NCBI GenBank assembly: GCA_001794125.1
Contig: MGJF01000002.1
Location: 172,514-236,513, forward strand
Source: Candidatus Yanofskybacteria bacterium RIFCSPHIGHO2_01_FULL_43_32
GTDB lineage: Bacteria; Patescibacteriota; Minisyncoccia; 2-02-FULL-40-12; GWA2-44-9
Length of the DNA: 64,000 nucleotides
Direction: 5' to 3'
Every line of letters begins with the position of its first letter. Position 1 is the first letter of the stretch. The notes beneath the pieces were generated by a model that saw only the letters and a list, made by a program, of their open reading frames with translations, did not search any database and had not been told where the DNA came from. Position numbers and translations under genes: made by a program. Shown one piece after another: positions 7,927 to 62,928 of this stretch.

Positions 7927-10293
7927 TTGTCGATATTCATTCTGATAATTTATCTTGTGGTCGTGGCGATAATATTCATTGCCGGGTTAGTGTTGGTCGG
8001 TTCATTCAGAACAAAGGGCGGTATTGCCAGAGCGTTGAATATGTCCTTATTTTTAATCAGCGTTCCGCGGGAGGACCCTTCGGCAGGCTCAGGGCAAGCT
8101 CAAAGGACAGAGAAAGAGATAATATCGGTCATGGAACAGCTTTATTCCTCGTTTACCAATCTTCACGCTAAGGGCTGGAACAAATTTATTTACGGGGAAC
8201 CGTATATTTCTTTGGAAATGGGAGTTCACCATGTGGGCGAGGAAATAAATTTTTACATGGCGGTGCCCCGAAGCTATGAGCAGATTTTTGAGAAACAGGT
8301 GAACGGATTTTTTCCCGCGGCTCAAGTGGAGAGAATTAAAGACTACAATATTTTCAATTCCCAAGGAGTTTCTTTGGGGGCATATTTAAAATTAAAAAAT
8401 AATTCAATTCTGCCCTTTAAAACATACCAATCGCTTCAGTCCGACCCTCTTAGCGGACTGGCAACGGCTCTTTCCAAGCTTCAAAAAGAAGGCGAAGGAG
8501 CGGCAATCCAGATACTCATCAGACCTACGCATCAGGACGATTTAAGAAAATTAGCGCAGAAGACCGCCAAAGAAATGCAATCGGGGTTTAATTTCTCCAA
8601 AGCATTGTCTTTAGCAAAGAATCCGCCCAAGAAACTTAAAGCGGGCGAAGCGGAACCGGAACGGCCCAAGGCCATAACGCCTTTTGAAGAGGAGGTCGTC
8701 AAGGGAATTCAAAGCAAGGCATCCAAGCCGTTATTTGACGCTAATATCAGAATAATAGTTTCCGCTCCTGATGAAGGACGGGCGAGCCAGCTCCTCAACG
8801 ATTTGTCCGGCGCTTTTGTCCAATTTTCGTCCAATGATATGAATAGTTTGCAGCTCATGAAATTAAAAGGAAGCGCTCTTGAAAAATTCCTGTTTAATTT
8901 TTCTTTCCGGCTTTTTGACAATTATCAGACGGCTCTTTTATCCAGTGAAGAAGTAACCAGTTTGTTTCATTTTCCTTTAGGCACTACTTTGGCGCCGAGA
9001 ATTAAGTTTTTGAAATCAAAACCGTCGGAACCCCCGCCGAACCTGCCCCAGGAGGGAATAATATTGGGCAGAAATATTTTCAGAGGCATCGAAAGCCCGA
9101 TAAGGATGACCGAAAGCGACCGGAGGAGGCATTTTTATCTGTTGGGACAGACCGGAACCGGCAAATCAACCTTGATGGAGAACATGATCTATCAGGATAT
9201 TTTGAACGGCGATGGAGTTGCTTTTATTGACCCTCACGGCACCGCGATAGAGAGGATTTTGGGACTAATACCGCCGGAAAGAATAAACGATGTTATAATT
9301 TTTGACCCGGCCGATGTGGCAAGACCCTTGGGTTTAAACATGCTGGAATTTGATCCCAATTTCCCCGAACAAAAAACCTTCATCGTGAACGAAATACTCG
9401 GGATTTTCCAAAAATTATTTTTGGCTGAAACAATGGGTCCGATGTTCGACCAGTATTTCAGGAACGCGATGCTTCTTTTGATGGATGATTACGCCAACGA
9501 AATTCCGACATTGGTGAATATTCCCCGTGTTTTAACAGACGATGTTTATAGGCGGGATAAATTATCAAGAGAAACGAATCCAATTGTTAAAAATTTCTGG
9601 GAATTGGAGGCCGAGAAAGCCGGAGGCGAAGCCGCTTTAGCCAACATGGCTCCTTATATCACCTCCAAAATAAACGGCTTTATCGCAAATGAATTTTTGA
9701 GGCCCATTCTGTCTCAGCAAAAAAGCGCTTTTAATTTCCGCGAACTGATGGACTCAAGGAAAATTCTGCTTGTAAATCTTTCAAAAGGAAGAATAGGCGA
9801 TATCAACGCCGGTTTACTGGGCATGATTATTGTCGGTAAGATATTGATTGCCGCTTTGTCGCGTGTTAACGCGCCTGAAAACCAGCGGCCCGATTTTTAT
9901 CTGTATATTGACGAGTTTCAGAATTTTACGACTGACAGTATTTCCACGATTTTAGCCGAGGCCCGTAAATACCGGCTGAACCTTACTATTGCCAATCAAT
10001 TCATCAAACAGCTGGTTGATAAGATTCGCGATGCCGTATTCGGAAATGTCGGTTCAATGGCCGTATTCAGAGTAGGCACCGATGACGCTGAATTTTTGAA
10101 AAATCAATTTGAACCGGTTTTCAGTCCCCAAGACCTTTTGAATATTGATAACTTCAACTGCTATGTTAAATTATTGATTAATAATCAGACAGCGCGGCCG
10201 TTTAACGTTAAAATAGACCCGCCGCCTGCGGCGAATCCGGAATTAGCGTCGCAACTGAAAGAAATGTCGCGGCAGAAATATGCGATTCACTAA
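7927..10293 (+). CDS. VirD4/TraD/TrwB-like type IV coupling protein family ATPase with an N-terminal TM anchor
   Basis: N-terminal TM helix. The C-terminal half has a Walker A (FYLLGQTGTGKSTLMEN) followed by AFIDPHG, matching the TrwB GATGTGKS...IVDPNGD pattern, then a Walker B-like YLYIDEFQNF. The ~380-aa N-terminal domain is of unknown type. Confidence 0.55.
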   Translation: MSIFILIIYLVVVAIIFIAGLVLVGSFRTKGGIARALNMSLFLISVPREDPSAGSGQAQRTEKEIISVMEQLYSSFTNLHAKGWNKFIYGEPYISLEMGVHHVGEEINFYMAVPRSYEQIFEKQVNGFFPAAQVERIKDYNIFNSQGVSLGAYLKLKNNSILPFKTYQSLQSDPLSGLATALSKLQKEGEGAAIQILIRPTHQDDLRKLAQKTAKEMQSGFNFSKALSLAKNPPKKLKAGEAEPERPKAITPFEEEVVKGIQSKASKPLFDANIRIIVSAPDEGRASQLLNDLSGAFVQFSSNDMNSLQLMKLKGSALEKFLFNFSFRLFDNYQTALLSSEEVTSLFHFPLGTTLAPRIKFLKSKPSEPPPNLPQEGIILGRNIFRGIESPIRMTESDRRRHFYLLGQTGTGKSTLMENMIYQDILNGDGVAFIDPHGTAIERILGLIPPERINDVIIFDPADVARPLGLNMLEFDPNFPEQKTFIVNEILGIFQKLFLAETMGPMFDQYFRNAMLLLMDDYANEIPTLVNIPRVLTDDVYRRDKLSRETNPIVKNFWELEAEKAGGEAALANMAPYITSKINGFIANEFLRPILSQQKSAFNFRELMDSRKILLVNLSKGRIGDINAGLLGMIIVGKILIAALSRVNAPENQRPDFYLYIDEFQNFTTDSISTILAEARKYRLNLTIANQFIKQLVDKIRDAVFGNVGSMAVFRVGTDDAEFLKNQFEPVFSPQDLLNIDNFNCYVKLLINNQTARPFNVKIDPPPAANPELASQLKEMSRQKYAIH

Positions 10294-33341: not shown

Positions 33342-34856
33342 TTAAAATGCCGGTCTGTAATCAGCAGGACATGTAGGCGCATTTGGACAAGCGGTTGCCC
33401 TCCATGTCGGAGTATTTGCGCCACCCCCGTCAATCAAAACGTCATATATATAACCGTCGGGAAAAGCAATGATATCCGTGGCAAAACCCTGGCACATATT
33501 ACCTCCTGATTTACTTAGAAGCCCGGCTCCTAATCCTTTAGCTGCTTCGTTCACGATTGCAAATGCTCCGCAAGGGCCCGATAGGTCAATGCCTTGTGTC
33601 TGCAAATTAGCTTTTGCTTGTGCTATTACAGCAGTACCATCGCCATGCTTAGTTCTGGCATCTGCCGGCGGAAATGAACCCGCTCCGCCAGTTGTTGGAG
33701 TCGATGCAGACGGAGCTTTCCCCAACCCCGGCAAGTTAAAAGTGTTTTTAACAAAGTCGGGGTTAATGGTGTATAAAATCAAATAGGAAGACAAGAGGAG
33801 AATTGCCCCGAATATCGCATTAGTCATATGCTGTCTTGCCTCGCCGGTCTTAACGGTGTTTCCCGCGGCTGTCAGATATAAAAATCCGGAATAGAAAAAC
33901 ATCACGAATACCGAAATGCCCAATATACCCAAAGACCAGGTGAATATCTGCTGGATAAGCTGTCCCAGATTAGTCGGAAGGCCCTTGGTTGGAACAGGGG
34001 GCGAAACCGGGTTTAAAAAGGGCGGACCTCCCACTTTGACGGTCAAACTCTGAGTTGAAGTCGCGGTACCCTTGGAATTGGTAACGCTTATTTTATAAGT
34101 CCCTTGGGCAATATCCGAAGGCACTTCAAAAGTGCTTGTGGTGAGCTGATTATCAGCCGAACTTTCCACATCTCTGCTCGTGCTTCCGGCCACAAGTTTT
34201 ATCTTATTGCTTAGATTTGTGCCATATACTTCAACGCTCTGACCCGGAACGGCTGAAGTCGGATTGAACCCTGTTATGACCGGCGGAACGGCGGGCACTG
34301 TCGGAAGGTTCGAAGGTTGAATTGGCGGTTGAGTCCCACCACCTCCACCGGAACTATAAGGCCAAGTAACGACTACTATATCGGAACGTTCTGTCACTGT
34401 TCGGACATCGTCCCGAGCCCGAGCGCTCATCATAAAACCAATTTGGTCGCCTTGTTGGGGAACCCAGGAAGAATCCAAGGGTGGAATACGAATCTGGTCT
34501 TTGCCTATTTCAATAGCAGTCATTCCTTTGCATTGCTGGCCGACGCGGAGCCAGTCCCATGTGGCGCCATGCCATTGGCCGTTGATCTTTGCAAAAATCC
34601 AAGGATTGCCTTCTATCTGAATTGTGTCGAATTGTGAAGGCGGCCATTGCCCGGCTTTTGTGTGGTAGATGCAAATAGTGTCGGAGGTAATGTCTACTTT
34701 GGTGATAGTTGAGGTCACGCTCCAGCCACCGACGTTAGTGTGAAGCCAGTTGATGCTTGCGGGGCTAATATCGTCCGCAAGAACAACAGGTGTGTTTAAA
34801 ACATAAAAAACACCCGACAAGACCAGAAGAGACAAAAGAAAAATTTTCTTATTCAT
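33342..34856 (-). CDS. secreted surface protein with an IPT/TIG-like domain and a C-terminal pilin-like double-TM segment (TrbC/VirB2-like, as seen in CPR)
   Basis: Signal peptide, a Gly/Pro-rich linker, and PVITGFNPTSAVPGQSVEVYGTNL (IPT/TIG). Then LIQQIFTWSLGILGISVFVMFFYSGFLYL...AIFGAILLLSSYLILY, a pilin-like helix pair. Confidence 0.5.
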   Translation of the reverse strand: MNKKIFLLSLLVLSGVFYVLNTPVVLADDISPASINWLHTNVGGWSVTSTITKVDITSDTICIYHTKAGQWPPSQFDTIQIEGNPWIFAKINGQWHGATWDWLRVGQQCKGMTAIEIGKDQIRIPPLDSSWVPQQGDQIGFMMSARARDDVRTVTERSDIVVVTWPYSSGGGGGTQPPIQPSNLPTVPAVPPVITGFNPTSAVPGQSVEVYGTNLSNKIKLVAGSTSRDVESSADNQLTTSTFEVPSDIAQGTYKISVTNSKGTATSTQSLTVKVGGPPFLNPVSPPVPTKGLPTNLGQLIQQIFTWSLGILGISVFVMFFYSGFLYLTAAGNTVKTGEARQHMTNAIFGAILLLSSYLILYTINPDFVKNTFNLPGLGKAPSASTPTTGGAGSFPPADARTKHGDGTAVIAQAKANLQTQGIDLSGPCGAFAIVNEAAKGLGAGLLSKSGGNMCQGFATDIIAFPDGYIYDVLIDGGGANTPTWRATACPNAPTCPADYRPAF

Positions 34857-34936
34857 ATTGGCTATCCAAATTATACAAGATTAGCGGCGCAAAGTCATTA
34901 GGTAATTATCCACTTTTTTGGTATTATTTTATAAAG

Positions 34937-36334
34937 ATGATTTTTGGGAAACCTCTCAATTTTTTTGTAATTTTGGCGGCTGTTTTAGCGGCCACTTTGT
35001 GTTTTGGCACGGCCAGTGCGGTTCTCGGAGTGGGCTCCCGCATCGCCGTGATAGCGGCGACAACAAGCGGAAATTCTGTCGTACAGGACGAGATACGGGA
35101 ACGCAATAAGCAGATAGAGGAACTTCAAAGACAAATAGAGGAATACCAGATCCAAGCCGACAGCTCGAGGACTAAATCCAAGACTCTGGAAAACGAGATT
35201 GCCCGTCTGAATGCCGAGATCAATCAGGTTCAGCTTGAGATAAGGTCCCTCAATCTATCCATCAACAAGACAGGCGCGGAGATAGGGGAAACGGAAAGAC
35301 AGATCAACGAAGCTACGGCCAAAATGGAGAAGCATAAGCAGGCATTAGCCCAATATCTCAAGCTTGCTTACGAAAATGACCAGAAAACGCTTACAGAAAT
35401 ACTCTTAAAGAACGAAAACATTTCGGATTTTTTCAATGAGCTAAATAATTTAAGCGCGACCCAAGATAATCTCCAGATGACCATCAAAGACATCAAGGGA
35501 TTGAGGGCCGAACTGAATGACCATCAGGAGCAGTTGGAAGACAAGCAGACCGAGCTTGAACGAGCCAGGCGGTTGCAGGAAATAGAGAAGCGCTCTCTCG
35601 ATTCGACCAAATCTGGACAAAATAAGCTTTTGAAGGAAACTAAGGGCCAGGAATCCAAATATCAAGATTTGGTAAAAAAAACTCAAAAAGATATTGAGGC
35701 ATTAAAAAACCAGATTAGCTATTTGATACAAAACGGGGTTTCGGCGGAAGAGGCGGTAAAATATGGTCATCTTGCTGCTATCGGAGCCGGTATTCGCCCG
35801 GAGTATCTTCTTGCTGAACTTGAATTGGAAAGCGCAACGGGAAACAACGTCGGAAAATGTTACATAATAGATACCACCAGCGGTTCTACGCGGAGCATAG
35901 TGAACGGACACGTTTATTCTAAAGGGATACATCCGACCAGAGACTTGGCTTTGTTTTTAAATATTACATCTGAACTTGGCAAAGATCCGTTTCAAACACC
36001 GGTTTCTTGTGCTCAGGGTTGGGGAGGTGCTATGGGTATAGCCCAGTTTATTCCGTCTACTTGGATGGGGTATCGGGATGTGGTTTCTCGAATTACCGGA
36101 CATGATTTACCGAATCCATGGAATATTGAGGATGCTATTACTGCTGCTGCAGCCAAACTTTCAAAAGATGGAGCCAGCAGCAAGACCGTTACCGGTGAAA
36201 TAGCAGCATCAAGGAGATATTATTGCGGGAGTTCCGTGAAAACAAGCTTGATGAGCTCATCGCGTTGGGCGAGTTGTGTTAATTACGCCAACTCTGTTCA
36301 GCGTCTCGCCACGGAAATCGCCAAAAATTTGTAA
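34937..36334 (+). CDS. membrane-anchored coiled-coil protein with a C-terminal lytic transglycosylase (SLT)-like domain
   Basis: TM helix, a long coiled coil (EnvC-like), and C-terminal GWGGAMGIAQFIPSTW matching the SLT GxMQxxxxTW signature. I take the start at 34937 (MIFGKPL) to avoid overlap with the upstream gene. Confidence 0.5.
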   Translation: MIFGKPLNFFVILAAVLAATLCFGTASAVLGVGSRIAVIAATTSGNSVVQDEIRERNKQIEELQRQIEEYQIQADSSRTKSKTLENEIARLNAEINQVQLEIRSLNLSINKTGAEIGETERQINEATAKMEKHKQALAQYLKLAYENDQKTLTEILLKNENISDFFNELNNLSATQDNLQMTIKDIKGLRAELNDHQEQLEDKQTELERARRLQEIEKRSLDSTKSGQNKLLKETKGQESKYQDLVKKTQKDIEALKNQISYLIQNGVSAEEAVKYGHLAAIGAGIRPEYLLAELELESATGNNVGKCYIIDTTSGSTRSIVNGHVYSKGIHPTRDLALFLNITSELGKDPFQTPVSCAQGWGGAMGIAQFIPSTWMGYRDVVSRITGHDLPNPWNIEDAITAAAAKLSKDGASSKTVTGEIAASRRYYCGSSVKTSLMSSSRWASCVNYANSVQRLATEIAKNL

Positions 36335-41807: not shown

Positions 41808-43040
41808 ATGAGAACGCCGATTTCACAAGAAGAAACAAACGATCGCAAGCACAAAGAAGAGGTCGTTTTACGCGAACAATCGCTGTCTATTTTTCACGAA
41901 CTTGCTAATTCCGTGATTGCTTCAAATGATACGGCCGAGGCTTTAAAAGAGATAGTAAAAATTATCTGCCAGTTCACTGAATGGCAGGTGGGAGAAGTGT
42001 GGATGCCGAGTCCGGACGGCTCGCGGCTCGCGCATATTTTTCAATGGTCGAAATCAGACGGCGAACAATTTTCTAATTTTTTAAAAACAACGCAAAACAT
42101 CACTTTTGCCCAGGGTATCGGTCTGCCCGGAAGAGTATGGAAGAATCAGGCTGTGGAGTGGATAACGGACGTAAAGAAGGAGTCGCCGGAAATATTCCTG
42201 CGGGTTCAAGCCGCGCAAAAAGCAGGACTTTCGGCGGCGGCGGGATTTCCGGTGCTGACCCAAGGAAAAGTTATAGCGGTCATCGTCTTTTTCATGCTAA
42301 AGCCCAGGGAAAAAGACGAGGATACGGTAAACTTTGTCAGTAGCTTAGTACAAAAATTAGAAATCTTTTTTGAAAATAAAAATAAAAATCAATTTCGGGA
42401 GCAGTTCATTTCCGTGCTTGGGCATCAAACCCGCAACCCCTTAACAGCCGTAAGGTGGATGCTGGAGAACCTTCTGGCCAATTCTAATCTTAAGGAAGTG
42501 GAAAAACAGGAATTGAAAAAAGTCTATAAGGAAAACCTGAACCTGATGAAACTGATCAGCGATTTACTGCTCCTTTCACGCGTAGAGAACCCCGTCCCGC
42601 AAACTGAAACGATTGATTTGGGAGAGGAAATAAAAAACGCGATTGAATCAGTCCGAAAAAAACAACCCGATGTTCTTGTCACATTTGAAAATGAAGCCGG
42701 TCCCGCGACGATCAGTACCGTTAAGTCATTGGCGCTCCAAGTGTTTCTCAATATTCTCCATAACGCAGCCGAACACGCGGATAAAGAACAGGGAAAAGTT
42801 GCGGTCAAACTGCAAAGTTCAAAACAAGGCATTCTCTTCTCCTGCTACAATAATGGAAAGCCGATACCGGAAGAAATGAGGCCTCTAATATTCACAAAGG
42901 TCGTCAGCACCGCCGGAGGAGCGGGCCTCGGGTTGTTTATCGTAAAAATGATATCCGATTATTTCGGATGGCAGGTATCGTTTGATACAGGGGAAGGAGG
43001 CACGACATTTTATGTAGCAATACCCCGGCCGGACCGATAA
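41808..43040 (+). CDS. sensor histidine kinase (GAF-like N-terminal domain, HisKA, HATPase_c)
   Basis: H-box LGHQTRNPLTAVRWMLENL, N-box LNILHNAAEHA, and G-boxes GAGLGL. Confidence 0.8.
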   Translation: MRTPISQEETNDRKHKEEVVLREQSLSIFHELANSVIASNDTAEALKEIVKIICQFTEWQVGEVWMPSPDGSRLAHIFQWSKSDGEQFSNFLKTTQNITFAQGIGLPGRVWKNQAVEWITDVKKESPEIFLRVQAAQKAGLSAAAGFPVLTQGKVIAVIVFFMLKPREKDEDTVNFVSSLVQKLEIFFENKNKNQFREQFISVLGHQTRNPLTAVRWMLENLLANSNLKEVEKQELKKVYKENLNLMKLISDLLLLSRVENPVPQTETIDLGEEIKNAIESVRKKQPDVLVTFENEAGPATISTVKSLALQVFLNILHNAAEHADKEQGKVAVKLQSSKQGILFSCYNNGKPIPEEMRPLIFTKVVSTAGGAGLGLFIVKMISDYFGWQVSFDTGEGGTTFYVAIPRPDR

Positions 43041-53346: not shown

Positions 53347-55131
53347 ATGACACATGGCGAGATTCGCGAAAAATTCCTCAAATTTTTTGAAGACAGGGGA
53401 CACAAAATAGTCCCGTCTTCGTCGTTGCTTCCGGCCGACCCGTCGGTTCTTTTTACCACGGCCGGAATGCAGCAGTTCAAGCCGTATTTTTTGGGAGACG
53501 CGGACCCGGTAAAAGATTTTGGCGGCAGAAGGACTGTGTCAATTCAAAAATCAATGAGAACTTCCGACATAGACGAGGTCGGGGACGAATCGCACCTCAC
53601 ATTCTTTGAGATGCTCGGCCACTTTTCTTTCGGCGATTATTTTAAAAAAGAGACGATAGAGTGGACTTACGAATTTCTAACCGATGTTCTTAAAATTTCC
53701 AAAGACAGGCTCTCGGCAACGGTTTTTGCCGGAGACGATAAAATTCCGTTTGACGAAGAGTCCTACAATGCCTGGTCCCGGTTCCTGCCGGCCGACCGTA
53801 TCCGCAAAGGGCCGCGGGAAGATAACGTATGGGGACCGCCCGGCCCCGAAGGCCCGTGCGGCGCCGCAAATGAAGTTTATGTAGATGACATGGAGGTCGC
53901 CACACTGGTTTTCATGGAATATAACTGTGATAAAGACCAGAATCTGACACCTTTGCCCCAAAAGGGGGTTGATGTCGGGTGGGGATTGGAAAGGATCGTA
54001 ATGATAACCCAGGGCAAAGGTAATATTTTTGAGACCGATTTGTTTGAACCGATTATGAAACTCCTTTTAGATTCTCCAAATAAATGGCTGGGAAGAATAA
54101 TAGCTGACCATGCACGAGCCGTTGTTTTTCTAATTGCCGATGGTGTCACTCCTTCAAATAAAGAACGGGGTTATGTCCTCCGGCGCTTATTGCGACGAAT
54201 GATTATTCAACTTTCCAGCTATACTGACGATTTTCTCGCCCCTATTTCAAAGGTTGTGGACTTATACGGTTCATATTATACCTTCGATAAACAAATGATT
54301 ATCGATGTTGTTGAGTTAGAAGCAGATAAATTTCAAAAAACCCTTACTCAGGGACGCAAAGAATTAGAACGTTTGGAATCCATAGATGCAACTAAAGCAT
54401 TCATGCTGTATGAATCATATGGTTTGCCCTTTGAGGTCATAAAAGATTTGGGTAGAGAAAAGGCCAAAGGACTTACTCGAGAGGCGTTTGATGAAGAATT
54501 TAAAAAACACCAGGAAAAATCCCGTGCCGGAGCGGAGAAAAAATTCGGCGGTCACGGATTGCTCATGGATACAGGTGAATTAAAAGCTGGAAACGAAGAA
54601 GAATTAAAGAAAGCCACACGACTTCACACAGCAACACATTTATTGCACGCCGCGTTGAGAAAAGTTCTGGATCCGCCAGCTGGCGGAGAAGTCCAACAAG
54701 CCGGTTCGGATATTACTGCAGAAAGATTGCGATTTGATTTCACCTTTCCTCGCAAAATGACCCCTGAGGAAATAAAGCAGGTTGAGGATATGGTAAACGA
54801 AGCGGTTCAGAAAGACTACAAAGTTACAAAAGAAGAAATGTCTTATGAAGATGCGGTCAAATCCGGCGCGATGGCATTTTTCAAACTTAAATATCCTAAT
54901 CGTGTAAATGTTTACACGATTGGCCCTGAGTCTTTCGACCCTGAGCTCAAGACCGAAGGGCCTGTCGAAGGGCATAATCCTTCGTCATCAAATTTCTCAG
55001 GACCTCCTTTCAGTCGGGAGCTTTGCGGAGGCCCTCATGTATCCCACACTGGCGAGATTGGCCATATCACTATTACCAAAGAAGAAGCCGTCTCCGCGGG
55101 GGTCCGCAGGATTAGGGCGGTTGTAGAGTAA
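53347..55131 (+). CDS. alaS: alanine--tRNA ligase (short form lacking the C-Ala domain)
   Basis: FLKFFEDRGHKIVPSSSLLP...LFTTAGMQQFKPYF, and the editing-domain HxxxH (HTATHLLHAAL). Only 594 aa. Confidence 0.9.
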   Translation: MTHGEIREKFLKFFEDRGHKIVPSSSLLPADPSVLFTTAGMQQFKPYFLGDADPVKDFGGRRTVSIQKSMRTSDIDEVGDESHLTFFEMLGHFSFGDYFKKETIEWTYEFLTDVLKISKDRLSATVFAGDDKIPFDEESYNAWSRFLPADRIRKGPREDNVWGPPGPEGPCGAANEVYVDDMEVATLVFMEYNCDKDQNLTPLPQKGVDVGWGLERIVMITQGKGNIFETDLFEPIMKLLLDSPNKWLGRIIADHARAVVFLIADGVTPSNKERGYVLRRLLRRMIIQLSSYTDDFLAPISKVVDLYGSYYTFDKQMIIDVVELEADKFQKTLTQGRKELERLESIDATKAFMLYESYGLPFEVIKDLGREKAKGLTREAFDEEFKKHQEKSRAGAEKKFGGHGLLMDTGELKAGNEEELKKATRLHTATHLLHAALRKVLDPPAGGEVQQAGSDITAERLRFDFTFPRKMTPEEIKQVEDMVNEAVQKDYKVTKEEMSYEDAVKSGAMAFFKLKYPNRVNVYTIGPESFDPELKTEGPVEGHNPSSSNFSGPPFSRELCGGPHVSHTGEIGHITITKEEAVSAGVRRIRAVVE

Positions 55132-56401: not shown

Positions 56402-58205
56402 AGACGATAAATTTGAGGAAATTTTGGATTTATTCAAGAATACTGCCGCAAAAGAAGTCATCTTTGTCCTGCCGAAAACGTCAAAAGCTTTCAAAAACGA
56501 AGAACACTTTATCATTCTTGACAATGAAGCCAAAAAGTCGGACAAGAAAATCTCGCTCCTGTGTTCCAGTCCTGACACAAACAAACTCGCAAAGAAATAT
56601 AAATTTGACGTCCTGTTGGCCAAGAGCGGGGACGAAAAACCCTTGATTACCGCTGTGAATCAATTTGATTCCGAAAAGGATGATGAGGAAAAAGAGGAGG
56701 ATACTGAAAAGTCGGAAACGGAACAAGAAGATAAAAATCAGGAAGACAACGACCGAGCGAAGAGCGAGGAAGTACTGAAGCCAGCAGGCCGAATGTACGA
56801 CGATAACGACGAGTTTCAAGTTATGACAGTTTCCAAAATGAGAAGAAGTCTTGAAGGTATCGTAAAACAGGGCGGAAAACCCCTTAAAATAAATCCCCCT
56901 AAAGAACGGCCCGTAAGCCTTTCCGTAAAGAAAAAGCCGGCACATGAATACCAATCCGTGGATGATATTAAAAATGTCTGGAAAGACCAGAACGAGCGTA
57001 TCCGCGTTCCGAGCGAGAGTATCTGGACAGGCATAAACAACAGAACGAGAAAATCCCTCAGAAATTTTCCCAGAAAGTCATTGATCGGCCTTGGCGTAAT
57101 TTCGGTTGTCCTGCTTGGAACCATAATTTACATATCCGCGGGAAACGCCAAAATAGATATAATGCCCAAAAAACAACCCCTTGATATTCAACTGAAGGTT
57201 TCCGCCTCGGATAAATTTTCATTTGTCGACGCCGGATTGAACAAAATCCCCGGCCAATTATTCAGCGTGGAAAAGAATGCCGCTCAAACCTTCCAGACAA
57301 CCGGAGAAAAAGAAGTCGCCCAGAAAGCCAGAGGAACAATCACGGTATTTAATGAATATGGGACTACGCCCCAAGTCCTTATCGCCACCACCAGATTTCA
57401 AACCCCGGACGGACTTATTTTCAGAACACTGAAAAGCATAACGGTTCCGGGAACAAAAGTGGAAAACGGCAAAATAATTCCGGGCAGTATAAGCGTGGAG
57501 GTCGTAGCCGATAAACCGGGGCAGTCATACAATATTCCGGCAGACAAATTCGGCATACCGGCTTTTAACGAACGGGGTGATGCCGGAAGATACGAAAAAA
57601 TATACGGAAAATCCGATGAAACCATGAGGGGCGGAGCTATCGGCAAAGCAAAAGTGGTTACCGATACGGATTTCAACGCCGCCAAACAAACCCTGTCGAA
57701 TCAGGTCACAAAAGACATTCAGGATTCCCTCAAGGCCCAAACCTCCGGATTAAAAGTGCTCAACGCTTCCGCCATTAAACTGAAAGAGCCGGAGTCCACT
57801 GCGAAAGTTGACGAAGCGGCCAATGAATTTATGATGGCAGTGAGCGCCGCGATAAAAACAGTGGGCTTCAAGGAAGACGACTTGAAAGGCCTTATCAGAC
57901 AATATATCGATAAAACTAAAAACCTTACCGCCATTCCCGAAAAACTTTCTACCAGCTATGACAACATAATCCTTGATGAAACCACCGGCATATTGACGTT
58001 CACCGTGAACATCAAAGGCAACGGCTATGCCAAAGTGGATGCCGATAAAATAAAGACGGATCTGGCCGGCAAAAATGAGACGGAGATAAAGAGCTACTTT
58101 AAGGAGGCCGCCGGCGTGGACACGGCCAAGGTGGTGTTATCGCCGTTCTGGGTTAAGAGAATCCCGCAGGATAAGGAGCGAACAAAACTCCAGATAAACT
58201 ATTGA
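56370..58205 (+). CDS. hypothetical membrane-anchored protein with an acidic low-complexity linker
   Basis: 611 aa. The N-terminal domain is followed by a D/E/K-rich stretch, one TM helix (~res. 230), and a large extracytoplasmic C-terminal domain. Its start overlaps the dus 3' end. Confidence 0.45.
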   Translation: MASTKIINVLKDDKFEEILDLFKNTAAKEVIFVLPKTSKAFKNEEHFIILDNEAKKSDKKISLLCSSPDTNKLAKKYKFDVLLAKSGDEKPLITAVNQFDSEKDDEEKEEDTEKSETEQEDKNQEDNDRAKSEEVLKPAGRMYDDNDEFQVMTVSKMRRSLEGIVKQGGKPLKINPPKERPVSLSVKKKPAHEYQSVDDIKNVWKDQNERIRVPSESIWTGINNRTRKSLRNFPRKSLIGLGVISVVLLGTIIYISAGNAKIDIMPKKQPLDIQLKVSASDKFSFVDAGLNKIPGQLFSVEKNAAQTFQTTGEKEVAQKARGTITVFNEYGTTPQVLIATTRFQTPDGLIFRTLKSITVPGTKVENGKIIPGSISVEVVADKPGQSYNIPADKFGIPAFNERGDAGRYEKIYGKSDETMRGGAIGKAKVVTDTDFNAAKQTLSNQVTKDIQDSLKAQTSGLKVLNASAIKLKEPESTAKVDEAANEFMMAVSAAIKTVGFKEDDLKGLIRQYIDKTKNLTAIPEKLSTSYDNIILDETTGILTFTVNIKGNGYAKVDADKIKTDLAGKNETEIKSYFKEAAGVDTAKVVLSPFWVKRIPQDKERTKLQINY

Positions 58206-58241
58206 CAAAAATATAGCGATGTATTAGGATTCAGGAGGTTC

Positions 58242-58445
58242 TTGTTCTTAGAAAAGGGAAAGGTCATGGATTCATTGCTAAATTCAGCTCCAGTAAGAAG
58301 TGCTGTTTCTCAGGTTAATCCGGCCAATCAGAAAGACAAGAAAGACATCCCGTTTATTCTCGGCTTTCTGGAGTATCGCAAGGGTGCGTGCTCGGCCACA
58401 TCAACCGGCTACTGGAACGATCCAGACGCTCTCGACAATACATAG
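58242..58445 (+). CDS. candidate graspetide (microviridin-like) precursor peptide; the start may be the ATG at 58266
   Basis: Leader segment DIPFILGFLEYRKG resembles the microviridin PFFARFL leader motif. The C-terminal core ACSATSTGYWNDPDALDNT is rich in Ser/Thr and Asp. A terminator gcggtccaactggaccgc plus T-run follows. Confidence 0.5.
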   Translation: MFLEKGKVMDSLLNSAPVRSAVSQVNPANQKDKKDIPFILGFLEYRKGACSATSTGYWNDPDALDNT

Positions 58446-58549
58446 TTTACGCGGTCCAACTGGACCGCTTTTTGTTTTGACAGATTAACATTTTAGTGCT
58501 ACGGTATCGGCATCTCTTTTACAAGTAGAACGCGATGAGGTGAGCCAAG

Positions 58550-59515
58550 ATGATATTAGCTATAGGCAACTCTGGGATTCATGAGGTGGATGCATTTAAG
58601 GCCGTTGCTGAATCTTTACAGAGACGGGGCTGCGACCGGGTAGTTCTTTTCAAGCAAGATAAATGTTTGGAAGGCGAATATTTTAATTGTGACGCAAGCA
58701 ATAGTAGATTCGCATATTCAGTCACAATAGACGGTAAGCAGTATAACGTAGAAGATTTTTCGGCTGTTTGGTATCTGAAACCCCATCTGCCACGAGAGCT
58801 GATGACCTATGAACCTGCAAAATACAGGCAACTGCTACAAAGACAGTTTCAGGAAATGCGGCAGGCGGTTTGGACGATATTTAGCCACAAGAAATGGGTA
58901 AACGACCCATGGCAGGAACTAAAGGTCGACAACAAGGCCTTTCAGCTTAATCTTGCCGTTCAAACCGGGTTCAAAATTCCTGATACATTGATAACATCCG
59001 ACCCGGAAAGAGTGAGAAATTTCTTCAATGCTCATAATGAAGATGTAATCTTCAAACTCTTGGCAGCCAGTCCAATCCAGGACGAAGTTATGTATACTAA
59101 TCGGTTGACCAGAGATTTTCTCAAGAATATCGAAAGAATCAAATCCTCGCCGACCATTTTTCAGGCATACGTACCCAAGGCCTACGAACTTAGAATAACC
59201 ATCGCCGGGGATAAAATATTTCCTGCTAAAATCTATTCGCAGGATGATTCAGGAACAGCCCTCGATTGGAGAAGGCGGCCTAAGCTAAATGACTTTGAGG
59301 CAAAGATGGAGATAACAGAACTCCCGCTCCATATCGAGCAAAGTATCAGAAGCTTTATGCTGGCGGCTAAACTTGACTTTGGCTGTTTCGATATGATAGT
59401 AACGCCGGACGGGGAGTATGTATTCCTTGAAATAAATCCCAGTGGCCAGTGGTATTTTGTCCAACTGCGGACAGAAGCTAAAATAGGAGAGGCAGTCGCG
59501 GATCTGCTTGTATAA
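58550..59515 (+). CDS. ATP-grasp enzyme, RiPP (graspetide) maturase-like (MdnC/MvdD family)
   Basis: An ATP-grasp fold. C-terminal FGCFDMIVTPDGEYVFLEINPSGQWYFVQ matches the LEINP.GQW signature of the peptide ligase subfamily. EDVIFKLLAASP is the ATP-binding Lys region. Confidence 0.65.
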   Translation: MILAIGNSGIHEVDAFKAVAESLQRRGCDRVVLFKQDKCLEGEYFNCDASNSRFAYSVTIDGKQYNVEDFSAVWYLKPHLPRELMTYEPAKYRQLLQRQFQEMRQAVWTIFSHKKWVNDPWQELKVDNKAFQLNLAVQTGFKIPDTLITSDPERVRNFFNAHNEDVIFKLLAASPIQDEVMYTNRLTRDFLKNIERIKSSPTIFQAYVPKAYELRITIAGDKIFPAKIYSQDDSGTALDWRRRPKLNDFEAKMEITELPLHIEQSIRSFMLAAKLDFGCFDMIVTPDGEYVFLEINPSGQWYFVQLRTEAKIGEAVADLLV

Positions 59516-59574
59516 AAAGTGGGGGAAAGGCATAATTAAGCCCGGTACCCCTTTTAAATCCCAATTTTAATAGA

Positions 59575-59979
59575 ATGAATAAACTTTTAGAAAAACAGAT
59601 AATACAGATGAAGGAGATAGAACAAGAGCTTCGCCTTAATGCAAAGCCTGGCAAAGACCCGGCTAACTATCTTATATATGCTGTTGATATCGGCCACAAC
59701 CAAATGATTTGGCGCATCATTGAGCAGTACGGATATCCGACAAAGAAGATGATAGGCGAAAAAGGAATGAAAGCGTTTTGGTTGTTGATCCAGCATCAGG
59801 ATTATGACCTTGAACTTCAGAAGCAGTGCTTAAAAAACTGCGATTTTGACGTTGAATCAAAACAGCTTTTAACAGACAGAGTGCTGATTAATAGCGGTGA
59901 AAAGCAGATTTATGGAACCCAGCATATGAGATTGCCGGACGGGAAAATAGTGGTGGCTCCTGTCAAAAAGCGAAAATAG
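59575..59979 (+). CDS. hypothetical protein adjacent to the ATP-grasp gene
   Basis: A 134-aa ORF 60 nt downstream on the same strand. Confidence 0.4.
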   Translation: MNKLLEKQIIQMKEIEQELRLNAKPGKDPANYLIYAVDIGHNQMIWRIIEQYGYPTKKMIGEKGMKAFWLLIQHQDYDLELQKQCLKNCDFDVESKQLLTDRVLINSGEKQIYGTQHMRLPDGKIVVAPVKKRK

Positions 59980-60017: not shown

Positions 60018-60046
60018 TTGACATTTAAAGGCGGTTTTGATAAAAT
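60018..60046 (+). promoter_or_regulatory. sigma70-type promoter (TTGACA, 17-nt spacer, TAAAAT) for the infA ribosomal cluster, implying a ~230-nt structured leader
   Basis: Consensus -35 and a good -10. The leader holds mutually exclusive helices ggtcg...cgacc and ccgac...gtcgg. Confidence 0.4.
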
Positions 60047-60283
60047 GAGAGGGCTTTAAAATATCATGTGTTTAGGCGGGTCCCATGATTCCTAAGTGGT
60101 GGACCTTCCGCCTACGGTAGTATTAAACCACTTGTTTTTAGTAGCGGAGTGCTGGTCGTGCTTTAGCCGACCGATGCTCTCTGTCGGGAGAAATTCATTT
60201 TGAACCCCGCCCTTGAAAAGCATATCAATATTTCTAACGGGAAGGGTTTCAAATAATAGTTAAGCATTGGAACTAAACAGCCG

Positions 60284-62187: not shown

Positions 62188-62928
62188 ATGATACAGATAC
62201 CGGAACAAATTAAAGTGTTGTCGAAGGAGGGTTCAAAAACCACGTTTGAAATATCTCCATTGATGCCGGGCTACGGAGCCACGATAGCAAACCCGTTAAG
62301 GAGGGTGCTGTTGTCGTCTTTGGAGGGAGCCGCTATCACCTCGGTTAAAATAAAAGGCGTCGACCATGAGTTCTCAAGCATCTCCGGGGTTTTGGAGGAT
62401 GTCGTCGAAGTCATTTTGAATATCAAAAAAATCAGATTTAAGCTTCACGGAGACGGTCCGGTCAAACTGACCTTGGATGTCAAAGGAGAAAAAACCGTCA
62501 CAGCCGCGGATATCAAGCTTACCTCTGATATTGAATTGATAAACGAAGACCAGCACATTGCCACCATTACCGACAAGAAAATGGGCTTGAGCATGGAATT
62601 GGAAGTGGAAAAAGGCGTCGGCTACGTGCCGGTTGAGCAGAGACAAAAAGAAAAACTCGCCATCGGAGTTATCGCCGTTGACGCTATTTTTTCACCCGTT
62701 AAACTCGTCAACTTCAAGATAGAAAACGTCCGCGTGGGCCAGAGAATCGATTTCAACAAGGTTGTAATGGAAATAGAAACGGACGGTTCCATAGAACCGG
62801 AGGAAGCAATGAAGAAAGCTTCTGAAATTCTTGTTGACCACTTTAAGTTGATTTCGGATGTTAAGACGGAAGAAAAGACGGCAAAGCCGAAGAAAACCAA
62901 AGCAACTGCCAAGAAAAAGTCCAAATAA
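62188..62928 (+). CDS. rpoA: DNA-directed RNA polymerase subunit alpha (N-terminal domain only; the alpha-CTD is absent and a Lys-rich tail replaces it)
   Basis: The alpha-NTD is present (GYGATIANPLRRVLLSSLEGAAIT...). The protein ends ...ILVDHFKLISDVKTEEKTAKPKKTKATAKKKSK at 246 aa, with no HhH-containing CTD. Confidence 0.88.
   Translation: MIQIPEQIKVLSKEGSKTTFEISPLMPGYGATIANPLRRVLLSSLEGAAITSVKIKGVDHEFSSISGVLEDVVEVILNIKKIRFKLHGDGPVKLTLDVKGEKTVTAADIKLTSDIELINEDQHIATITDKKMGLSMELEVEKGVGYVPVEQRQKEKLAIGVIAVDAIFSPVKLVNFKIENVRVGQRIDFNKVVMEIETDGSIEPEEAMKKASEILVDHFKLISDVKTEEKTAKPKKTKATAKKKSK

Follow-up and report, generated by a model that had tools for sequence, protein, structure and literature searches.

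A probable compact graspetide cassette with a DUF6624 gene in Candidatus Yanofskybacteria

What three adjacent open reading frames (ORFs) on the + strand of a tiny-genome groundwater bacterium of the candidate phyla radiation (CPR) make together is the question raised by positions 58202-59979 of a 64-kb window of Candidatus Yanofskybacteria DNA. The window is the whole stretch that was analysed, and all coordinates of its features are positions within it. The three products are labelled hypothetical in GenBank (OGN01744.1 for the 59-aa form of the first, OGN01745.1, and OGN01746.1), and a first-pass annotation made from the sequence alone had described them as a microviridin-like precursor peptide, an ATP-grasp ligase, and a 134-aa ORF in a CPR-like genome. 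The coordinates given there for all three ORFs were correct, and exact protein matches led to metagenome-assembled genomes (MAGs) of Candidatus Yanofskybacteria, which belong to the CPR. The three genes, spanning ~1.8 kb, very probably form a compact cassette, native to this lineage, for a graspetide, that is, an omega-ester-containing peptide that is made on the ribosome and modified after translation (RiPP). The parts of the cassette are as follows.

58202..58230, + strand: candidate sigma-70-like promoter, TTGACA-17 nt-TAGGAT, 5' of the precursor gene, with 10 of 12 consensus matches
58266..58445 (ATG start, 59 aa) or 58242..58445 (TTG start, 67 aa), + strand: graspetide precursor gene, assigned by the family profile and by its upstream position in homologous loci
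58350..58373, + strand: leader recognition motif PFILGFLE, precursor residues 29-36, conserved in homologous precursors
58398..58436, + strand: predicted core crosslinking segment, T45-S-T-G-Y-W-N-D-P-D-A-L-D57, assigned by the family consensus
58451..58478, + strand: intrinsic-terminator-like hairpin and T-run between the precursor and ligase genes
58550..59515, + strand: graspetide ATP-grasp macrocyclase of MdnB/MdnC/CdnC type, 321 aa, assigned by profiles, PDB matches, and an AlphaFold2 (AF2) model
59575..59979, + strand: DUF6624 (PF20329) protein, 134 aa, predicted to be cytoplasmic and all-alpha, assigned by Pfam; third gene of the cassette

The ligase ORF starts 104 nt after the stop codon of the small ORF, and its C-terminal end reads ...FLEINPSGQWYFVQ... 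The protein matched the NCBIfam models MvdC (E 4e-61, 207 bits), SAV_5884 (1e-57, 196 bits), and MvdD (9e-55, 186 bits) over the full length, with lower matches to grasp-with-spasm (3e-30, 106 bits) and RimK (2e-7, 31 bits). A sequence search of the PDB returned only graspetide macrocyclases, namely, MdnB (1e-42), AMdnB (3e-40), MdnC (1e-36), CdnC (1e-34), PruB, and PsnB. The AF2 model of the ligase had a pLDDT of 90, and Foldseek ranks 1-32 were likewise graspetide macrocyclases (CdnC, AMdnB, MdnC, PruB, MdnB, PsnB), of which CdnC, AMdnB, and MdnC were the best with TM 0.80-0.84; RimK entered the list from rank 33. Among 28 homologues, the Mg-binding motif E294-x-N296, which is E294-I-N296 in the window, was invariant together with 40 other columns, as were D281, K169, and R215, and E294-I-N296, D281, and K169 aligned with MdnB. 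Judged by these alignments, the ATP/Mg-binding catalytic residues are intact. The ligase is a graspetide macrocyclase of the MdnB/MdnC/CdnC/PsnB class, in a clade apart from that of the microviridin enzymes, and more than 120 homologues at ≥43% identity were found, mostly in Patescibacteria metagenomes. The proposed graspetide ligase was thus confirmed, and the comparison with maturase models that had been suggested for it grouped the enzyme with RiPP maturases and not with RimK, GshB, or Ddl.

The small ORF 5' of the ligase was compared with those of homologous loci. It contains IPFILGFLEY and ends in ...ACSATSTGYWNDPDALDNT. A profile of 13 small ORFs 5' of homologous ligases, to which the window did not contribute, matched it with E 1e-16 and 57 bits among 1,876 six-frame ORFs of the window, the runner-up having E 0.66. 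A regular expression for leader and core matched 15 of ~17,800 ORFs, and all 15 were located immediately upstream of an ATP-grasp gene. Since the profile match was unique in the window and the pattern was found only beside ATP-grasp genes, the small ORF is, by its sequence, more than a chance ORF. Of the 17 closest loci, which were drawn from species-representative genomes, 16 (L001-L012 and L014-L017) had a homologous small ORF ending 14-95 nt 5' of the ligase, and the expectation of such homologues beside ATP-grasp genes in relatives was therefore borne out.

The homologous precursors shared a leader of the form P-[FL]-[IV]-L-x-F-L-E, typically PFILxFLE, and a C-terminal core of the form T-[TS]-[ST]-G-x-[WYH]-x-[DNE]-x-D-x-x-D, typically TTSGTWxDxDxxD, the core of the window being TSTGYWNDPDALD. 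The leader had been likened to the microviridin recognition motif, and the likeness is partial: five of the eight residues of PFILGFLE agree with PFFARFLE, and the family profile gave a microviridin precursor a score of only 5.7 bits. The motif fits Phhx(1,2)h, the general leader signature given by Makarova et al. 2022 (PMC8939145). The core is rich in hydroxyl donors and Asp acceptors as proposed, with T45, S46, and T47 as adjacent hydroxyls and D52, D54, and D57 as acceptors. As it has no Lys, only ester linkages would be expected, with at most three rings and no macrolactam. The precursors of L002, L003, and L005 have a Met immediately before the PFIL motif (MPFILMFLE…), and their leaders may be as short as ~12 residues.

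The steps by which the cassette would work were taken from the established mechanism of the enzyme class, as known from structural and biochemical work on MdnC, PsnB, and CdnC. By analogy, the leader motif would dock on the ligase and activate it, and the ligase with ATP/Mg would turn the core carboxylates of D52, D54, and D57 into acyl-phosphates. The hydroxyls of T45, S46, and T47 would then attack the acyl-phosphates, giving up to three macrolactone rings.

The supply of precursor and enzyme may be set by the spacer between their genes. Directly 3' of the small ORF, a hairpin, GCGGTCC-AACT-GGACCGC, is followed by TTTTTGTTTT; its stem has 7 bp, of which 6 are G-C pairs, and its folding energy is -14.1 kcal/mol. 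This matches the terminator that had been assigned to the precursor gene. A hairpin with a T-run was also present in the precursor-ligase spacer of 10 of 16 homologous loci, the sequences being unrelated. Since the position was kept despite the unrelated sequences, the element is a probable conserved attenuator. It would probably stop most transcripts, and more precursor mRNA than enzyme mRNA would result.

The cassette is native to the Candidatus Yanofskybacteria genome, as the GC content was uniform (~0.43-0.46) over the cluster and its flanks and the same context was found in five independent metagenome contigs with identical arrangement. The flanking genes are housekeeping genes, namely, alaS, dus, and an infA-rpsM-rpsK-rpsD-rpoA-rplQ-rplM block. 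The five contigs were 100% identical over the cluster, and a selection test from population variation had no variation among them to use. As for the wider family, the precursor closest to that of the window (…PFILNFLTYRKGVTAPTTTGTWPDPDASDNS) was encoded on a Chitinophagaceae MAG chromosome (locus L008, OZ241749.1, 3795-5521). This host genome is a 6.25-Mb Bacteroidota genome with the same cassette, in which the DUF6624 gene lies on the opposite strand, and the GC content of the host loci ranged from 26 to 63% across the family. The Bacteroidota cassette and this GC range suggest a horizontal spread of the cassette beyond the CPR.

Whether the family was already known was determined from two published surveys. 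Graspetide clusters in CPR bacteria were described by Makarova et al. 2022 (Biol Direct, PMC8939145), and their cluster1865 precursor from Candidatus Giovannonibacteria, MEKVDLKQTKEQEPTRQLPFILGFLEYREGAMAPTTCGIITDIDAYDAA, adjoins a 320-aa ATP-grasp protein. This precursor scored 60.7 bits against our family profile and, as judged from sequence, clearly belongs to the same family as the window peptide. The two leaders are nearly identical (…LPFILGFLEYREGA… in cluster1865 vs …IPFILGFLEYRKGA… in the window), the stretch PFILGFLEYRxGA being fully so; both C-termini have the core layout TTxGxxxDxDxxD; and the ligases, compared by length and not by sequence, have 320 and 321 aa. Both hosts are CPR bacteria, but of Giovannonibacteria and Yanofskybacteria, respectively, and the core residues differ (ATSTGYWNDPDALDNT vs PTTCGIITDIDAYDAA). 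The published cluster1865 family held only three near-identical sequences. Two further items listed for the Giovannonibacteria genomes are missing from the window, namely, another ATP-grasp protein (309 aa, Branch 2) and another precursor, cluster1874, with gi numbers adjacent to the ones of the cluster1865 precursor and ligase (PMC8939145). The Yanofskybacteria example of that survey was considered as the same locus and rejected, as it is of a different type (cluster2658, 328-aa ligase, Branch 1). An uncharacterised 'cluster 23' protein was also reported there in all loci of the CPR branch, often as a lipoprotein and with conserved His and Arg, and this description fits DUF6624.

In the survey of Carter, Ramesh, Saad, Mubarik, and Mitchell 2026 (ACS Chem Biol, PMC13097080), group 42 comprises 22 clusters, many of them from candidate phyla, and DUF6624 occurs in 81.8% of its biosynthetic gene clusters. 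Its minimal cluster, consisting of precursor, graspetide synthetase, and DUF6624, is that of the window, and its representative precursor has PLIL…TTxGTxxDPD, which is shared with the window family. The window shows both the co-occurring DUF6624 and the candidate-phyla origin of this group. In an EFI-like network at an alignment score of 70, the window ligase joined L011 and L015-L017, whose precursors resemble the group 42 representative; at a score of 80, it was in a separate sub-cluster, L001-L010, the representative enzyme MFW0837389.1 being outside the comparison. Relative to the group 42 representative, the sub-cluster of the window has a leader-core linker shorter by 10 residues and a PFILxFLE instead of a PLILD leader. 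The window accessions were absent among the listed rows of the data table of PMC13097080. What is new here is the host lineage and the core sequence; the family was already catalogued in the 2022 and 2026 surveys, and no new concept goes beyond them. The remark of the first-pass annotation that RiPP clusters are rarely reported in Patescibacteria is outdated by the CPR graspetides of the former survey and the DUF6624-linked CPR group of the latter.

The product of the third gene matched DUF6624 (PF20329) with a Pfam E-value of 8e-14 and 51.9 bits, against a gathering threshold of 27. Among the 17 closest loci, 15 encoded a DUF6624 homologue directly 3' of the ligase and one, L002, encoded it at another place; overall, 24 of the 80 fetched loci carried one. 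The gene order of precursor, ATP-grasp macrocyclase, and DUF6624 was conserved in homologous loci. No other recurrent neighbour was found in these loci, except a histidine kinase in a few. AF2 modelled the protein as a bundle of five helices plus a small hairpin (pLDDT 88.5), and the PDB contained no informative structural or sequence relative. Fifteen positions were invariant, including R20, D38, Q73-H74-x-D76, Q82, D101-R102, Q111, and G114-T115-Q116. As these were kept even in distant members, the alignment suggests that they form an active or ligand-binding site. At E ≤1e-3, the family comprises 11,086 representatives, among which copies in tandem and fusions of various kinds occur. The fusion partners were considered as a clue to function and discarded as uninformative, being heterogeneous (DUF4440, ABhydrolase_N, ChaN, cytidylyltransferase, and DUF3455). 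The CPR graspetide-linked copies have no signal peptides. We infer that DUF6624 is linked to the cassette in function and is an accessory protein that works without ATP. Our preferred guess for its role is post-cyclisation processing, such as leader removal, or binding/immunity, which is favoured over an obligate partnership with the ligase. A further proposal is tentative and rather doubtful in its full extent: DUF6624 would stand for a new class of proteins that serve RiPP maturation or self-protection without ATP, for example a leader-removing hydrolase or product-binding immunity factor whose all-alpha fold is an orphan; the product of the cassette, a small peptide with three lactone rings, would be used by CPR episymbionts to act on hosts or competitors; and the cassette would be the minimal natural system for showing this.

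The histidine kinase is a 7TM-GAF sensor kinase (HisKA_7TM + GAF + HisKA + HATPase_c) and was located within 2-3 kb of the cassette in four to five loci (L004 1446-3596, L015 1452-3608, L019 69-2174, and L026 1771-3405). The nearest histidine kinase of the window is at 41808-43040, 15 kb from the cassette. The proximity in those loci is probably synteny, a signalling tie between kinase and peptide being the less likely reading.

Several points weigh against the reading of the locus as a working graspetide cassette with a dedicated DUF6624 protein. The ester crosslinks are predicted from the genes of a family with no experimentally characterised member. The ligase is below all NCBIfam equivalog cut-offs (207 vs 425 bits for MvdC and 186 vs 475 for MvdD), and the regiochemistry thus cannot be transferred from the microviridin enzymes. 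No leader peptidase or exporter was found in the 64-kb window. Promoter-like sites were not enriched in the region, with 4 found and 4.2 expected from shuffled sequence; since such sites are not commoner than in shuffles, the promoter of the precursor gene at 58202-58230 is graded as plausible, and of the promoter and terminator once ascribed to this gene, the hairpin with its T-run is the part that stood. In the case of DUF6624, distant members have signal peptides, stand alone, and are not near ATP-grasp genes; pairwise identities of ligase and DUF6624 across loci were weakly correlated (Spearman 0.25); and the window protein has no ~30-aa C-terminal tail, which in most homologues includes a conserved NVxKRRKxxGLxPL segment.

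The shortened third protein, together with the missing transporter and peptidase, would be expected if the cassette were a decaying or silent remnant without a mature product. This is very improbable, as all three ORFs are intact, no invariant residue has been lost from the ligase or from DUF6624 (15 of 15 kept in the short form), and most homologous loci likewise have no adjacent transporter. A DUF6624 homologue with 81% identity, P0122, has the same short form, which indicates that this form is a maintained variant, and no frameshift remnant was found 3' of the window gene. That the ligase is a housekeeping enzyme of RimK, GshB, or Ddl type beside a spurious small ORF is effectively refuted. 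The automatic JGI annotation of homologues as 'glutathione synthase/RimK-type ligase-like ATP-grasp enzyme' and a weak Pfam match to GSH-S_ATP (E 0.003) point to it, but the RiPP maturase models exceeded RimK by more than 150 bits, macrocyclases took all of the first 32 structural ranks, and the family of the small ORF is conserved in sequence and position. The microviridin system (group 1, MdnA + MdnB + MdnC) agrees with the window in enzyme fold and class, in a similar leader helix motif, P-F-x-x-x-F-L-E, and, by analogy, in the chemistry of ATP-dependent side-chain ester formation. However, it has two dedicated ligases, one of ester type (MvdD/MdnC) and one of amide type (MvdC/MdnB), and the window has one; the window core GACSATSTGYWNDPDALDNT has neither Lys nor PSD, so an amide ring and a KYPSD core are excluded; the acetyltransferase and transporter of microviridin are missing and a DUF6624 gene is added; and the ligase, unlike those of microviridin, is under the equivalog cut-offs of MvdD and MvdC (TIGR04184 and TIGR04185, respectively). 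Since core motif, ligase number, accessory genes, and equivalog scores all fail, the cluster is not microviridin, and 'microviridin-like' stands for a similar leader motif and the enzyme class and not for the defining features. Accordingly, a microviridin-type serine-protease inhibitor is an improbable product. The PFFARFLE-like leader and the presence of MdnB and MdnC among the closest solved enzymes speak for it; the core without the TxKxPSDx(D/E)(D/E) pharmacophore, the single ligase in place of an MdnB and MdnC pair, the lack of a GNAT protein and an ABC transporter, MvdC and MvdD scores at less than half of the cut-offs, and the poor profile score of the microviridin precursor speak against it. 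The protease-inhibitor-like activity proposed at first is thus unsupported. To our knowledge, most graspetides outside group 1 have no demonstrated protease-inhibitor activity, and rosaritide did not inhibit the growth of a small bacterial panel.

Rosaritide (group 21) also provides the model for a different role of DUF6624, namely, that of an obligate partner or chaperone on which the stability or activity of the ligase depends, as with MirC. Rosaritide likewise follows a three-gene logic, with a third protein that strictly co-occurs with the synthetase. That partner has a PPIase/chaperone domain of PpiC type and bears no relation to DUF6624. Such a role would agree with the adjacency of the DUF6624 and ligase genes in almost all close loci, with the precedent of partner-dependent graspetide synthetases, with the absence of a signal peptide in the CPR proteins, which would place them in the cytoplasm like the ligase, and with the helical-repeat-like fold of the model, which may suit peptide or protein binding. 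It is nevertheless unlikely. Many graspetide-linked 'cluster 23' relatives are secreted lipoproteins, which misfits a cytoplasmic ligase partner, and the distant members are secreted and stand alone. The size and varied fusions of the family and the weak co-variation with the ligase also argue against it, and the invariant polar residues are more suggestive of a site for catalysis or ligand binding. Thus, an accessory protein acting after cyclisation, or in binding or immunity, remains our preferred reading.

Other features of the window were observed in passing. The alanyl-tRNA synthetase (AlaRS) homologue at 53347-55131, hypothetical in GenBank and alanine--tRNA ligase in UniRef, is short, with 594 aa; a typical bacterial AlaRS has ~870 aa. 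RpoA (62188-62928) has 246 aa and the Pfam domains RNA_pol_L and RNA_pol_A_bac without the alpha C-terminal domain, and its C-terminal end is Lys-rich (…KTAKPKKTKATAKKKSK). The best promoter-like site of the region, TTGACA-17-TAAAAT with an extended TG and 11 of 12 consensus matches, belongs to the stretch 60018-60283, in which a ~235-nt leader precedes infA. This 235-nt leader had no Rfam match and folded no better than shuffles (z -1.4); the Rfam scan of the window returned tRNAs only. Type IV secretion-like parts were found at 7927-10293 and 33342-36334, including a TrwB-type coupling protein domain, a T4SS pilin domain protein, and an SLT transglycosylase, which are typical of CPR surface and attachment gear.

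CPR bacteria have very small genomes with few secondary-metabolite genes. As such small genomes keep a conserved peptide-modification cassette, the cassette likely matters for the symbiotic or parasitic lifestyle of these bacteria. Few uncharacterised families are as frequent in graspetide clusters as DUF6624, and the interest of the locus rests mainly on the role of this protein and on the purpose of graspetides in CPR bacteria. Being minimal and widespread, the family offers a convenient entry to both the function of CPR graspetides and that of DUF6624.

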